This document shows, piece by piece, positions 2,001-37,186 of a DNA stretch of 64,000 nt. Under the pieces are notes generated by a model. It did not search any database. It had not been told where the DNA came from and saw nothing but the letters and a program-made list of their open reading frames with translations. The translations under genes and the position numbers were made by a program. How positions within the stretch are numbered: position 1 is the first letter of the stretch; each line of letters opens with the position of its first letter. This stretch comes from Thermoflexus hugenholtzii JAD2 (GTDB taxonomy: Bacteria; Chloroflexota; Dehalococcoidia; UBA2979), in NCBI GenBank assembly GCA_945903275.1, contig CAMDNW010000002.1:75829-139828 (forward strand), read 5' to 3'.

Positions 2001-2668
2001 CGGGCGGCCACTACTTGCGATTCGATACGCGCGGCCTCACACGTGCGCGCGAAGATATCGAGGAACGTGTCTTCCACTGCCTTGTGCGGTGGAGCGTCGC
2101 CGAGTACTTGAGCCATCGAAGTCACGCCTGCGTCGGCGATGCCACAGGGGACGATCGCCTCGAACCATTCGAGATTGGTCGAGACGTTCAGCGCGAAGCC
2201 GTGCGTGCTCACGCCGTCACGGATGCGGACGCCGACCGCGGCGATCTTTGATACGCCGGCTTCCACCCACACTCCGGGGCGTCCGGGCACCCGATCAGCA
2301 TTGATACCGAAGGTAGCGAGCGTCTCGATGACGCATGACTCCAACATGCGGACGTATGTCGCAGCACCGAAGCCCAGGGCGCGTATATCGAGAATCGGGT
2401 AGGCCACGAGTTGGCCGGGGCCGTGGAAGGTCACGTCGCCGCCCCGGTCGGTCTCGACGACCGCCGCGCCGCGCGATGCCAGCCATTGTTCTGAGGCAAG
2501 CACGTGCTCTCGCGACCCTCGCATCCCGAGGGTGTAGACGGGCTCGTGCTGGAGGACGGCAATGGCCTCGGAGGCACCGGAGCGCACCTCGGCGGCGCGG
2601 GCCTGCTGCCATGCAAGGCCCTCGTGGTAGCAGAGGGTACCAAGGCGTTCGATGCGCACCGCTGTCAT
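1997..2668 (-). CDS. lipB: lipoyl(octanoyl) transferase
   Basis: Conserved LipB blocks HEPVYTLG and RGGDVTFHGPGQLVAYPILDI are present. Start chosen at ATG 2668 (MTAVRIERLG); the ORF is open up to 2797, so the N-terminus is uncertain. Confidence 0.85.
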   Translation of the reverse strand: MTAVRIERLGTLCYHEGLAWQQARAAEVRSGASEAIAVLQHEPVYTLGMRGSREHVLASEQWLASRGAAVVETDRGGDVTFHGPGQLVAYPILDIRALGFGAATYVRMLESCVIETLATFGINADRVPGRPGVWVEAGVSKIAAVGVRIRDGVSTHGFALNVSTNLEWFEAIVPCGIADAGVTSMAQVLGDAPPHKAVEDTFLDIFARTCEAARIESQVVAAR

Positions 2669-33185: not shown

Positions 33186-33261
33186 GGGGGTGTAGCTCAG
33201 TTGGGAGAGCGCTGCATTCGCATTGCAGAGGTCAGGGGTTCGAATCCCCTCACCTCCACCA
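33186..33261 (+). tRNA. tRNA-Ala(CGC)
   Basis: Acceptor GGGGGUG/CACCUCC with the G3:U70 Ala identity pair, anticodon loop UUCGCAU, T-loop TTCGAAT, encoded CCA. Confidence 0.85.
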
Positions 33262-33363: not shown

Positions 33364-34770
33364 ATGCGGCGCGGATGGCGCGGCCGCGAGCAGCGGCGCG
33401 CACATGCGAGGCCCATCGTGACGACATCGGCGGCACCAGTACCACCGGCACCTGAGCAGCGGACGGCGGCGGATTTGCCGTTGCCGGCGTCGCTGTTTGG
33501 GCGGGCGGTGTTTTATGGGTGGTACATCGTGGCGGCGGGGCTGGTGGCTTCGGCGCTGTCTTCGGGGATCCAAGCGTACGGCCTCGGGACGTTCATCCGG
33601 CCGATGACGGAGGAGTTGGGCTGGTCGCGGACGGACATCTCGCTGGGGCAGACGCTCTCGACGGCGGTGGGCGGGATCATCGGGCTGTTCATCGGGGGAC
33701 TGATCGACCGGCGGGGCGGGCGGATGCTGATGATCGTGGGCGCGATCATCGGAGGCGCGGGGTTCGTGGGCCTCGGGTTCGTGCAGACGCTGTGGCAGTA
33801 CTACCTGGTGAAGGCTGTGATCCTCACGATCGGCATGGCGGGGATGGGGCCGATGATCGTGAACGTCGCGATCTCGAACTGGTTCGTGCGGCGGCGCGGG
33901 CGCGCGATCGCGATCTCGGCGATGGGGATATCGGTAGGGGCGTTTGTGGTGCCGTCACTGGCGGCGTGGCTGATCGGACAGTTCGGGTGGCGCATCGCGT
34001 GGATGGTGTTTGGCGTGGCGGTGTGGGTGGTGATCATCCCGGTCGCGGCGGTGGTGATGCGGCGGCGGCCGGAGGACTTCGGCCTCGAACCCGATGACGG
34101 GTGGGTGTCGTCGCGGGCGGTGAGCGCGCTCGACCAGCGGCGGGCGGATGCGGACGCGCTGGAGTGGACGCGGCGGGAGGCGATGCGGACGCCGACGCTG
34201 TGGCTGTTGATCCTCACGTTCGGCCTGGCTGGCATGGGCGTGGGGGCGCTGTTGCTGCACCTGATCGCGTACCTCACGGACATCGGCTTCTCGACGGCTG
34301 AGGCAGCGTTCGCGTTTAGCATGATCGGGCTGTCGGGACTGATCTCGAAGCCGTTCTGGGGGCTGCTCGTGGAGCGGGTAGCGACTCGGTTTGTGGCAGC
34401 TGCGGAGTTCGTGCTGCTGGGGGTGGGGATCCTGCTGGTGATGATGGCACCGGGGCTGTGGCTGACAGCAGCGGCGATCTTCATCTTTGGGGTGGGCGTG
34501 GGCGGGACGCTGACGGTGCAGGAGACGGTGTGGGCGGACTACTACGGACGGAAGACGCTGGGGACGGTGCGAAGCATCGGGCGGCCGTTCACGATCGTGT
34601 CCAGCGCAGGCGGGCCGGTATTGGCGGGGATGGCGTACGACCTCGGCGGGTCGTACGAGGTGGCGTTCAGCGTGTTCGTGGTGGCGTACCTGGGGGCGGC
34701 GGCGCTGATCTTGTTCACGCCGGAGCCTCGGCATCCGGGGCGGGCCTCGGTGAGAGCGGCGAGCACGTGA
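33364..34770 (+). CDS. MFS transporter
   Basis: ~12 predicted TM helices with the MFS motif-A-like loop GGLIDRRGGRMLM after TM2. Confidence 0.8.
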   Translation: MRRGWRGREQRRAHARPIVTTSAAPVPPAPEQRTAADLPLPASLFGRAVFYGWYIVAAGLVASALSSGIQAYGLGTFIRPMTEELGWSRTDISLGQTLSTAVGGIIGLFIGGLIDRRGGRMLMIVGAIIGGAGFVGLGFVQTLWQYYLVKAVILTIGMAGMGPMIVNVAISNWFVRRRGRAIAISAMGISVGAFVVPSLAAWLIGQFGWRIAWMVFGVAVWVVIIPVAAVVMRRRPEDFGLEPDDGWVSSRAVSALDQRRADADALEWTRREAMRTPTLWLLILTFGLAGMGVGALLLHLIAYLTDIGFSTAEAAFAFSMIGLSGLISKPFWGLLVERVATRFVAAAEFVLLGVGILLVMMAPGLWLTAAAIFIFGVGVGGTLTVQETVWADYYGRKTLGTVRSIGRPFTIVSSAGGPVLAGMAYDLGGSYEVAFSVFVVAYLGAAALILFTPEPRHPGRASVRAAST

Positions 34771-34813
34771 GGTGGATACATGTAGCACATTTGGTGCTAC
34801 ATGTATCCACCTC
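34769..34813. promoter_or_regulatory. perfect 45-bp palindrome (20-bp arms, 5-nt centre): candidate toxin-antitoxin operator and/or terminator of the MFS gene
   Basis: gaggtggatacatgtagcac atttg gtgctacatgtatccacctc, read directly. It overlaps the MFS stop codon and the 5' end of the antitoxin reading frame. Confidence 0.6.
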
Positions 34814-35100
34814 GTATTCAGTATCGGTATCCGGAAACTGCGGCAGAACGCCAGCAAATACCTTCGCCGCGTCAAGGCGGGCGAGACGATCACGATCACC
34901 GACCGAGGTGAGCCAGTCGCAGAGATTCGGCCGTGAAGCCGACTAGATCGGTGGTTGCCCGGCTGATCGCGGAGAGGCGTGCGACGCCGCCGACGATGGA
35001 CATTCGGGAGACACTTGCGAAACACCCACCTGCGCAGCTGCGACCGGGAGAGCGGTCACTCAGCGAGCTATTGATGGAGATGCGTGACGAGGATTCCTGA
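34772..35100 (+). pseudogene. Phd/YefM-type (VapB-like) antitoxin, apparently frameshifted, start obscured
   Basis: Frame 2 reads ...IRKLRQNASKYLRRVKAGETITITDRGEPVAEIRP then stop at 34934 (the Phd/YefM N-terminal fold). Frame 1 continues VKPTRSVVARLIAERRATPP...LSELLMEMRDEDS, stopping 6 nt before vapC. Joining them needs a 1-nt (G) indel at ~34933. The only in-frame start is GTG 34772, inside the palindrome. Confidence 0.55.
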
Positions 35101-35106
35101 TAAATC

Positions 35107-35493
35107 GTGTTCTACGCAGACTCATCAGCATTGACCAAACTCGTAGTACCAGAATCGGAATCAGATGCGCTCCGCGCATACAACGGCGACGACCACACCG
35201 TTGCATCCTCCCTATTGTCGATCACGGAACTGCTGCGAGCGGCGTACCGAACGAACACTGAACTCGACGGACAGGCACGGCGGGTACTCGCATCACTGCT
35301 GCTCATTGATATAGATCGAGCGGTACTGAAATCTGCAGCAACCCTTGCATCGCCAGCGTTGAGGACGCTCGACGCGATTCACGTCACGACGGCACTGACG
35401 CTGGGTAGAGACCTCGACGCGGTGCTCACGTACGACACTCGGATGAGCAAAGCAGCACGAAGTACGGGCTTCCGCGTGAAGGCTCCGGTGTAG
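35107..35493 (+). CDS. vapC: PIN-domain ribonuclease toxin
   Basis: MFYADSSAL (D5), SITELLRA (E), LRTLDAIHVTTAL (D) and LTYDTRM (D) cover the four PIN acidic residues. GTG start sits 6 nt after the antitoxin stop. Confidence 0.75.
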   Translation: MFYADSSALTKLVVPESESDALRAYNGDDHTVASSLLSITELLRAAYRTNTELDGQARRVLASLLLIDIDRAVLKSAATLASPALRTLDAIHVTTALTLGRDLDAVLTYDTRMSKAARSTGFRVKAPV

Positions 35494-35500
35494 AGCAGCC

Positions 35501-36607
35501 CTAGACCTGCACGGCCACGGTGCGGCCTTCGCGCGAGGAGCGCTCGATGGCATCGATGAGGCGGTGGCGGGTGACGGCGAGGGCGAAGTCCGGCGCGGCG
35601 GAGGGCTGGCCTTCCCACGCGTCGGCGATACCGGCGTAGGCCTGGGCGACGTTGCGCGGCGGGCCGCTCGGGGTGCCCTCGGGGACGAGGGTGTACTTGT
35701 CGGGCACCGTGAGTTCGGCGGCGGCCTCGCGGCCCTGCGCGCCGAAGATACGGTTCGGCCCGGTGGAGAGCGCGCCAGCGGAGGCGAGCAACAGGGTGCC
35801 TTTGTGACCGTAGATTTCTAGGCGGCTGCCGGTAGGACTGACCGGGACGGCGGCGACCTGAATGGCGACCTCAGCACCGCTCACGAGGCGTCCAGCGATG
35901 GCGATGCTGTCGGGCGCGTCGACGGGGACGGACTGGTTGTTATCGGTATCGAGCCACTCGGTGACGCGCGTGGTGACGCGTGCGGAGACCTCGGCAAACT
36001 CGCCGAGGATGGTGCAGAGCGCATCGATGCCGTGGCCGCCGGAGATGGTGAGCGTATTCGCGCCGTTCTTGCGCTCGCGCTGCCAGAGGCGGCCGGCAGC
36101 GCGCTCATACGATGCGCCGGACATGACGCTCAGGTTCGCGGAGAGCACCTCGCCGAGGTAGCCATCGGCGACGAGGTCGTGGGCGTAGCGGATCGCGGGG
36201 TCACTGCGGCCCTGGAGGCCGACGATGGTGCGGAGCCCCTGCTCGCGGGCGAGCGCGGCCATCTCCTCGGCCTCGGCGAGGTTGGCGCCGAGGGGCCACT
36301 CACAGAAGACGGGCTTGCCAGCGCGCAGACCGGCCATGACAAGGTCGCGGTGCCACGGGACGCGCACGCAGACGACGACCATATCGACCTCTGGGTGGGC
36401 GACCATGTCCTCGATGTTGTGAAAGGCGAGTTCCGCGCCGAAGGCGGCGGCAGAGGCCTGCGCGGTCTCGGCGTGGGCGGTGCAGACGGCTTTGACCTCG
36501 AAGTCCGGGAGGGCCTTGAGCGCGGGGACGTGGGCGTTGGCGCCCCAGCCACTGCCACCGGGCGTGACGGTGGCACCAACAATCCCGACCCGAATCTTGT
36601 CCGCCAT
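35501..36607 (-). CDS. Gfo/Idh/MocA-family NAD(P)-dependent oxidoreductase
   Basis: IRVGIVG...GANAHVPAL Rossmann N-terminus and the EWP (EKP-like) motif VFCEWPLG. Confidence 0.8.
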   Translation of the reverse strand: MADKIRVGIVGATVTPGGSGWGANAHVPALKALPDFEVKAVCTAHAETAQASAAAFGAELAFHNIEDMVAHPEVDMVVVCVRVPWHRDLVMAGLRAGKPVFCEWPLGANLAEAEEMAALAREQGLRTIVGLQGRSDPAIRYAHDLVADGYLGEVLSANLSVMSGASYERAAGRLWQRERKNGANTLTISGGHGIDALCTILGEFAEVSARVTTRVTEWLDTDNNQSVPVDAPDSIAIAGRLVSGAEVAIQVAAVPVSPTGSRLEIYGHKGTLLLASAGALSTGPNRIFGAQGREAAAELTVPDKYTLVPEGTPSGPPRNVAQAYAGIADAWEGQPSAAPDFALAVTRHRLIDAIERSSREGRTVAVQV

Positions 36608-37111: not shown

Positions 37112-37186
37112 GCCCTCGTAGCTCAGGGGATAGAGCATCGGTTTCCTAAACCGTGCGCGCAGGTTCGAGTCCTGCCGGGGGCACCA
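37112..37186 (+). tRNA. tRNA-Arg(CCT)
   Basis: Acceptor GCCCUCG/CGGGGGC, anticodon loop UUCCUAA, 4-nt variable loop, T-loop TTCGAGT, encoded CCA. Confidence 0.8.

Follow-up and report, generated by a model that had tools for sequence, protein, structure and literature searches.

An intact PIN toxin gene beside a broken Phd/YefM antitoxin gene: a VapBC-type cassette probably in early decay

Organization of the locus and its relatives

The window analysed here, a 64,000-nt stretch of contig CAMDNW010000002.1 (Thermoflexus hugenholtzii JAD2, assembly GCA_945903275.1), carries a small toxin-antitoxin (TA) cassette between an MFS transporter gene and a convergent GFO/IDH/MocA oxidoreductase gene. 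The cassette consists of a perfect 45-bp inverted repeat, a Phd/YefM-type antitoxin gene that is split over two frames and a vapC-type gene encoding a PIN-domain toxin; all genes and features described below are on the plus strand unless stated otherwise. A first-pass annotation of the same DNA had read the locus as a VapBC-type operon with a Phd/YefM-type antitoxin and a PIN toxin, and the domain matches of both genes agree with that reading.

The exact toxin protein is encoded on seven metagenome contigs in public data, which come from different runs and assemblers, and six of these (L002-L007) reach across position 34933, where the antitoxin gene is broken. An additional metagenome contig, found by searching for an arm of the inverted repeat, represents a sister strain (L017); over 2.5 kb it shares 98.8% identity with the window, from which it differs by 31 substitutions without any gap. 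The syntenic ortholog contig, L018, encodes in order an MFS transporter, the antitoxin P0121, a 128-aa PIN protein and a GFO/IDH/MocA oxidoreductase, and its flanks share ~90-97% nucleotide identity with the window. Homologous modules also occur in unrelated contexts, adjoining an MptA/B-family glycosyltransferase in L019/L020 and L021, and a cadherin-repeat protein in L022/L023. An intact, co-oriented antitoxin gene lies upstream of the toxin gene in L018 and in L019-L021. A search with the two antitoxin halves fused returned P0121 (97 aa), which is 88% identical over 99% of the query, together with single open reading frame (ORF) homologs of 91-106 aa, one of which is named as coming from a Dehalococcoidia metagenome-assembled genome. 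The antitoxin/toxin family is widespread and is found at differing loci. The ancestral order, as preserved in L018, was MFS, promoter/operator, 97-aa antitoxin, 128-aa PIN toxin and GFO.

The antitoxin gene has lost both its reading frame and its start codon

The N-terminal half of the antitoxin (VFSIGIRKLRQNASKYLRRVKAGETITITDRGEPVAEIRP; 34814-34932) comprises the Phd/YefM DNA-binding and dimerization domain. The ORF that contains it, from a GTG at 34772 to a TGA ending at 34936, matches PF02604 (PhdYeFM_antitox) over residues 17-52 with 36.3 bits (cut-off 29.8) and TIGR01552 with 39.8 bits (cut-off 20.8). The C-terminal half (VKPTRSVVARLIAERRATPP...SELLMEMRDEDS; 34933-35100) continues in the -1 frame and was identified by full-length alignment with 21 single-ORF homologs; searched alone, ORF 34933-35100 has no Pfam match. 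This half is presumed to be the toxin-binding region, and a stand-alone 55-aa product of the ORF is possible.

Between the two halves lies a 1-nt deletion at 34931-34932, where alignment with L018 places CC in the window against CCC in the ortholog. L018 reads CGG CCC GTG AAG (R P V K; CGGCCCGTG) and the window reads CGG CCG TGA (CGGCCGTG). The single-base frameshift proposed by the first-pass annotation is therefore upheld, although the base concerned, judged against L018, is a missing C of the CCC run and not the G that had been named, a difference in history that leaves the effect the same. The deletion creates a TGA stop (34934-34936) that overlaps a GTG (34933-34935) in the sequence GTGA.

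A second lesion lies at the start of the gene. L018 reads ...GTACAC ATG GTA TTC AGC (M V F S) and the window reads ...ATCCAC CTC GTA TTC AGT, such that the former start codon (34811-34813) is CTC in the window and CGC in L017 where it is ATG in L018, L019, L021 and L022. These three bases are the last of the right arm of the inverted repeat and pair with GAG at 34769-34771. The N-terminal codons of the antitoxin had been described as embedded in the repeat. However, the close homologs all begin M-x-x-x-IGIRELRQ at the codon matching 34811-34813, and consequently the 14 codons from GTG 34772 to 34813 are not ancestral coding sequence; these 42 bases hold seven of the 31 differences between the window and L017, nearly all of them non-synonymous.

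A sequencing error had been offered as one explanation of the split. This does not survive the comparison: six independent assemblies (L002-L007) are identical to the window through 34933, with no indel, and L017 likewise has no indel at the site, indicating that the frameshift is fixed in a natural population and predates the 1.2% strain split. All 21 aligned homologs are single ORFs (91-106 aa), and the window lacks one ORF with a start. Programmed -1 frameshifting and transcriptional slippage were considered and rejected, as neither an X XXY YYZ slippery heptamer nor a long homopolymer is present at CGGCCGTGA (site T CGG CCG TGA) and the homologs are single-frame.

Substitutions within the gene point to relaxed constraint. 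E9K alters a residue that at least 90% of homologs conserve, AERR stands where homologs read AEGR, and the protein ends in DEDS as compared with a DEER-type end in the homologs. Between the window and L017, three of the four changes in the antitoxin body are non-synonymous, and the ratio of non-synonymous to synonymous divergence (dN/dS) relative to L018 is ~0.23 for the C-terminal half and 0.03 for the N-terminal half. Judged by these alignments, what was a full-length antitoxin gene is now a pseudogene carrying two independent, real lesions that are common to two strains; the appropriate annotation for the locus is a Phd/YefM-family antitoxin pseudogene together with a vapC-like gene.

The inverted repeat is an expanded form of a shorter ancestral repeat

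A repeat search identified one outstanding inverted repeat in the region 34600-35600. As previously noted, it is perfect, with arms of 20 nt each (34769-34788 and 34794-34813; 100% complementary) separated by the 5-nt spacer ATTTG (34789-34793), and it overlaps the MFS stop codon (TGA, 34768-34770), the final two bases of which form the start of the repeat. Two ACATGT cores, at 34778 and 34799, lie 21 bp apart. The arm sequence is unique within the window, and two matches were obtained in none of 100 shuffles. The predicted hairpin has a free energy of -24 kcal/mol as DNA (z = -10.9) and -39.7 kcal/mol as RNA (z = -6.5).

Comparison with the relatives indicates that the length of the repeat is recent. 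In L018 the inverted repeat has arms of 11 nt only (ACATGTAGCAC / CAGAT / GTGCTACATGT; -14 kcal/mol), L017 has 19 of the 20 arm positions paired at the outer end, and distant homologs have a single 17-bp box only. Relative to L018, the changes in the window group in the outermost 9 nt of each arm, and every one of them raises complementarity. The GAG of the left arm (34769-34771) is constrained by the MFS stop-codon context and also occurs in L018, and the CTC of the right arm (34811-34813) is its complement. The perfect 45-bp form is thus, on this evidence, lineage-specific and derived by expansion from 11-nt arms, and would not be the native operator. The earlier suggestion that the palindrome is a candidate operator is accordingly retained for the core of its right arm, which corresponds to the conserved box described below, and not for the perfect 45-bp form.

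The spacer provides a further indication of how the repeat changed. ATTTG matches the spacers of L018 (CAGAT) and L017 (TAAAT) at 0/5 positions directly and at 4/5 positions when reverse-complemented, which indicates that the spacer was inverted in the window strain after its split from L017. Homogenization of arms, expansion of arms and inversion of the spacer are documented outcomes of replication template switching at imperfect inverted repeats (PMC8604942, PMC13100816, PMC7202029). It is suggested that the palindrome grew by template switching between its arms, and that the same process later inverted the spacer of the window strain. The clustered multi-nucleotide changes, the perfect arms, the extension from 11 to 20 nt and the flip of the spacer between close strains all resemble quasipalindrome mutagenesis under the Ripley model (PMC7202029, PMC8604942, PMC13100816), whereas here the process is deduced from three natural sequences and not seen experimentally, and its outcome is the loss of a start codon in a TA operator.

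A repeated element, such as a miniature inverted-repeat transposable element, was rejected as the source of the palindrome, given that the arm has no further copy in the window, has no match in viral contigs and has as its only metagenome match the same locus in the sister strain. Each arm also contains GAGGTGGATACATGTAG (window 34776-34785), in which a Shine-Dalgarno-like GAGGTG and a spacer are followed by an ATG and an immediate TAG; this start-stop pair is probably a coincidence of the ACATGT core. The 5' ends of three independent contigs, L005, L002 and L007 (34772, 34816 and 34824), fall inside the palindrome or at most 11 nt past it, and the palindrome may break assemblies or mark a boundary of coverage or strain.

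A conserved box marks the predicted promoter and operator of the subfamily

The right arm coincides with a box, GTGCTACATGTATCCAC (34794-34810), that is conserved in the upstream regions of L018, L019/L020, L021 and L022, as identified by comparing the 90 nt upstream of homologous antitoxin genes in unrelated genomic contexts; the left arm is an inverted copy of the box that overlaps the -35 region. In the homologs the box takes the form GTGCTACATGT(A/G)(G/T)ACAC directly 5' of the ATG, with the variants GTGCTACATGTAGACAC-ATG in L019 and L021, GTGCTACATGTGTACAC-ATG in L018 and GTGCTACAAGTAGCTAC-ATG in L022. A common arrangement is found in L018, L019, L021 and L022: (C/G)TGACA (GTGCAA in L022), 17-18 nt, TGTGCTACA(T/A)G, 7 nt and ATG, in which the -35-like hexamer, GTGACA or CTGACA, lies 17-18 nt upstream of TACATG. 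The window retains a TG at 34795-34796 followed by the -10-like TACATG (34798-34803), and has GATACA (34775-34780) as its -35-like element. The sequence of the box is in turn close to palindromic (GTGCTACATGTAG[A]CAC), as would be expected of an operator bound by a dimeric repressor.

From this arrangement we infer a -35 element, an extended -10 element (TGnTACATG) and a 7-nt discriminator ending at the ATG. No Shine-Dalgarno sequence precedes the ancestral ATG, which sits 7 nt past TACATG, and these two features suggest that the antitoxin mRNA of the ancestral module was leaderless. The more distant relatives L008 and L010 have TACAAT, 7 nt and ATG inside a palindrome of their own, TGTTCT...AGAACA. 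The conserved box GTGCTACATGTAGACAC-ATG thus appears to mark the promoter/operator of this Phd/YefM-PIN subfamily.

The PIN toxin gene is intact and mosaic

The toxin gene (35107-35493) encodes 128 aa from a GTG start and was identified by its match to PF01850 (PIN, 38 bits; cut-off 23.6), by alignment, and by comparison of an AlphaFold2 model using Foldseek. As the first-pass annotation had stated, the GTG lies 6 nt past the TGA of the second antitoxin ORF; in the homologs the toxin starts 1-4 nt past the antitoxin stop. The four acidic catalytic positions, D5, E41, D89 and D110, are likewise present as had been reported, and all 18 invariant columns of the 21-member family alignment are kept. 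A phmmer search of the PDB with the toxin returned no relative, the family profile found only the Klebsiella pneumoniae VapC 7by2 (E 0.0017), and no NCBIfam model matches the toxin. Given these blank or weak sequence matches, the fold was compared. The model is confident (predicted local distance difference test score 95.3) and matches the VapC structures 5x3t, 5wz4, 4chg and 6a7v with a Foldseek probability of 1.00 and template-modelling scores of 0.70-0.77.

Despite this integrity, a segment covering the 3' end of the antitoxin, the gene junction and toxin codons 1 to ~90 (35064-35375; boundaries approximate) differs from its surroundings in sliding identity, GC content and synonymous divergence (dS). 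Nucleotide identity to L018 falls to 0.53-0.67 in the segment from 0.90 or more on either side. The GC content of the segment is 0.43-0.63 as compared with 0.60-0.73 in L018. Relative to L018, toxin codons 1-90 have a dS of 1.13 and a non-synonymous divergence (dN) of 0.415, and codons 91-128 have 0.27 and 0.089; the corresponding dS and dN values are 0.38 and 0.012 for the N-terminal half of the antitoxin, 0.53 and 0.124 for its C-terminal half, 0.16 and 0.017 for the MFS gene and 0.09 and 0.017 for the GFO gene. Saturated synonymous divergence confined to one segment indicates allelic replacement by recombination. Over toxin residues 1-90, the window is 56% identical to L018 and 48% identical to L019, whereas L018 and L019 are 61% identical to one another; the antitoxins have the opposite pattern, with 88% identity between the window and L018 as compared with ~70%. 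The outgroup comparison and the GC content together point to the window lineage as the recipient of a divergent, lower-GC allele of ~300 bp. The protein database yielded no close donor allele: its best match beyond this locus is 54% identical. Given the mosaic residues 1-90, the predicted Mg2+-dependent RNase activity and growth inhibition by the toxin are uncertain. Neither this recombinant stretch of the first 90 toxin codons nor the loss of the antitoxin ATG through palindrome growth had been recognized by the first-pass annotation.

Two non-synonymous variants were seen in the population: A8V (window 35129), at a family-invariant position, in L017, and V32G (35201) in L001. These may hint at relaxed constraint, with numbers that are far too small to tell.

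At the homologous loci, tblastn and translation recover a full-length PIN toxin (L019, 4298-4678; L022/L023, 1496-1880), whereas the public gene calls miss the toxin in L019 and shorten it to 76 aa in L022/L023, probably due to non-ATG starts. Antitoxins that look orphaned in these data can consequently be artefacts of annotation.

Discussion

The preferred interpretation, to which a probability of roughly 0.6 is assigned, is that this chromosomal type II TA cassette, with a Phd/YefM antitoxin and a VapC/PIN RNase toxin, is in early decay and that the module is defunct or at least silent. Three changes became fixed in the window lineage: the arms of the operator repeat extended from 11 to 20 nt, with the right arm overwriting the antitoxin ATG with CTC; one C of the CCC run was lost, splitting the antitoxin over two frames; and ~300 bp comprising the 3' end of the antitoxin and toxin codons 1-90 were swapped for a divergent, lower-GC allele. 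In this model, the full-length repressor-antitoxin would no longer be made: a leaderless message without a 5' AUG could not initiate translation in the antitoxin frame, and the translation of the toxin, formerly coupled to the antitoxin ORF, would be lost with it. Growth of the repeat would also have changed the -35 element from GTGACA to GATACA, with a 1-nt insertion, and altered the discriminator, and the chimeric toxin may itself be impaired. An intact toxin ORF would then be tolerated because its product is not active or does not reach harmful levels, and would still be open because too little time has elapsed for a lesion. For a target of only ~390 bp, it is not improbable that neutral decay would leave the toxin gene intact after striking the antitoxin twice. 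A defunct or silent module is the most likely reason for the tolerance of the toxin.

Several observations weigh against this interpretation. The toxin keeps every invariant residue of its family and has a confident PIN model, and nothing in its sequence shows inactivity. Loss of the repressor-antitoxin should derepress the promoter and make an expressed toxin more dangerous. Strains 1.2% apart have the lesions in common and both keep the toxin ORF open, which implies that this state has lasted for a while. Between the window and L017 the toxin differs by one non-synonymous and two synonymous changes, too few to tell selection from drift. The direction of recombination, into the window and not into L018, is drawn from three outgroup comparisons and the GC content, and the promoter and leaderless start from conservation only; a generic sigma-70 promoter scan does not call the site, given that the last base (position 6) of its -10 element is G.

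If decay is the correct reading, the locus is a clean natural example in which the antitoxin was broken before the toxin, a sequence of events generally presumed lethal. It would also exemplify an operator repeat that lengthened by template switching and in doing so removed the start codon of the gene under its control, and whose spacer is flipped between strains 1.2% apart. For annotation, the lesson is that an intact toxin beside a frameshifted antitoxin can be real and not a sequencing error, and the locus offers a simple system in which to test toxin silencing, split-antitoxin function or cross-neutralization.

The persistence of the arrangement across strains 1.2% apart, with an intact toxin, raises the possibility that the split antitoxin is functional: the 55-aa peptide from GTG 34933, translated by termination-reinitiation, would neutralize VapC, and an N-terminal fragment from GTG 34772, its translation coupled to the MFS stop, may still bind the operator. 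The GTGA stop/start overlap at 34933-34936 is a classic translational-coupling arrangement, which fits such a mechanism and does not prove it; GTG 34772 lies 1 nt past the MFS stop in a frame that is open in both strains; the frameshift separates the folded Phd/YefM domain from the C-terminal region; and the dN and dS values of the N-terminal half relative to L018 indicate strong purifying selection. Nevertheless, this explanation is unlikely for several reasons. Neither GTG is preceded by a good Shine-Dalgarno sequence, and GTG 34772 is buried in the -39.7 kcal/mol RNA stem, 5' of the predicted native start of transcription. The 14 codons within the palindrome, with their excess of mostly non-synonymous strain differences, do not look coding, and the C-terminal half has two non-synonymous and no synonymous changes between the strains in addition to its substitutions at conserved positions. 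Furthermore, the surface of the toxin was swapped by recombination and the resident antitoxin C-terminus may no longer match it.

A stronger form of this proposal, that the 1-nt deletion made a working three-part TA module through a chain of couplings (MFS stop/GTG 34772, TGA/GTG 34933, and the toxin GTG 6 nt past the antitoxin stop), is improbable. Three-component TA systems with a separate regulator and antitoxin exist, such as omega-epsilon-zeta and paaR2-paaA2-parE2, and the present locus would be alike if both halves were made, with DNA binding and neutralization on separate polypeptides; however, the split here is a recent 1-nt deletion and not a conserved architecture, as 21/21 homologs are single ORFs. 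Were it true, the module would capture in nature how TA systems can come to have a separate regulator and antitoxin, and growth of the operator palindrome by template switching would have rewired the expression of the operon.

A toxin that is active and expressed may alternatively be checked in trans by a paralogous Phd/YefM-type antitoxin elsewhere in the genome, possibly the partner of the donor allele. That the toxin is mosaic implies an encounter with another, divergent allele of the family, and the family is widespread at different loci. However, tblastn found no second PIN or Phd/YefM homolog in the window, and the protein database holds no close donor allele, as described above. Neutralization in trans is considered doubtful.

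It is also conceivable that the 45-bp palindrome is mainly an RNA element, a terminator or stabilizer hairpin at the 3' end of the MFS mRNA that insulates the TA remnant from read-through, and not a DNA operator. The hairpin is very stable, begins inside the MFS stop codon, and its growth coincides with the inactivation of the downstream operon. This is very unlikely: although the stem is present, no T-run/U-tract follows it and a terminator scan returned 0 sites; Rfam 15 yielded only sub-threshold noise, namely matches to the mir-633 and mir-3479 microRNA hairpins (31 and 28 bits, with thresholds of 90 and 79); and the core of the right arm is conserved 5' of antitoxins that have no MFS neighbour, which argues for an origin as a DNA promoter/operator. 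Finally, an antitoxin that is really one ORF, disguised by a sequencing or assembly error or read by -1 ribosomal frameshifting or transcriptional slippage, can be set aside as highly implausible, since, although one base in a short C/G run would restore a 97-aa protein close to P0121, seven other assemblies from different runs and assemblers all have CC, the site offers no slippery sequence, and with the start codon also lost a restored frame would not give the native protein.

Read as a decaying cassette, the locus belongs to a known type and is otherwise a routine chromosomal VapBC-type module with ordinary biology, which works, or once worked, in the manner of other autoregulated type II modules. 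It shares with the VapBC systems of Mycobacterium tuberculosis (VapBC 5x3t, VapBC15 4chg, VapBC11 6a7v and VapC20 5wz4) and Shigella (3tnd) a PIN fold, here of 128 aa, with its acidic tetrad, a toxin gene directly downstream of a small antitoxin gene, and a palindromic box over the predicted promoter. It differs in that its toxin is only 12-22% identical to the solved VapCs and its antitoxin is of the Phd/YefM type and a pseudogene. The N-terminal PF02604/TIGR01552 domain and the paired palindromic candidate sites overlapping the -10-like element are instead reminiscent of the Phd/YefM operons yefM-yoeB of Escherichia coli and phd-doc of P1, although the partner here is a PIN domain and neither YoeB nor Doc, and the antitoxin gene is split and has lost its start codon. 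YefM of E. coli binds a pair of palindromes, L and S, that have TGTACA as their core, and one of the pair overlaps the -10 element (PMC1802561, PMC4803016). In the window the core motif is different, the ACATGT cores are spaced 21 bp centre to centre as compared with 12 bp in E. coli, and the operator is a candidate only.

Flanking genes and genomic context

The left flank of the cassette is the MFS transporter gene (33364-34770; 468 aa; PF07690 MFS_1, E 1.5e-44), and the right flank is the GFO/IDH/MocA oxidoreductase gene on the minus strand (35501-36607); both are syntenic in L018. The toxin and GFO genes are convergent, with 7 nt between their stop codons. GC content falls from ~0.68 outside the cassette to 0.55-0.62 across it. 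GFO homologs in GTDB genomes are mostly from Dehalococcoidia (61-63% identity), which, with the Dehalococcoidia antitoxin homolog, makes a high-GC Chloroflexota relative the probable source of the DNA, and a search with the GFO gene led to five GTDB-genome loci (58-78% identity), none of which (0/5) has a TA cassette adjoining GFO. This absence supports insertion of the cassette; the same five loci gave no outgroup for dating the lesions in the antitoxin and palindrome. The closest of the GTDB GFO matches (78%), L012 (JAUXWR010000101.1), is a 2.3-kb high-GC contig binned as 'Legionella sp.' that is probably mis-binned, and it encodes an unrelated 241-aa membrane protein in place of the TA cassette.

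The MFS-TA-GFO block is bracketed by tRNA-Ala(CGC) (33186-33261) and tRNA-Arg(CCT) (37112-37186). Near the 3' end of the MFS gene, just 5' of the palindrome, a 9-nt in-frame indel, GTGGTGAGG, distinguishes the window (~34756) from L018 (~253-261), where the nine bases are present. In the sister strain L017, 215 nt of the MFS gene are gone between 10-nt direct repeats, GGGCGGGCGG (window 33499-33508 and 33714-33723; L017 ~2506-2515, minus strand). The loss frameshifts the transporter, and the MFS gene therefore seems to be decaying in L017 as well, unless the gap is an assembly artefact.

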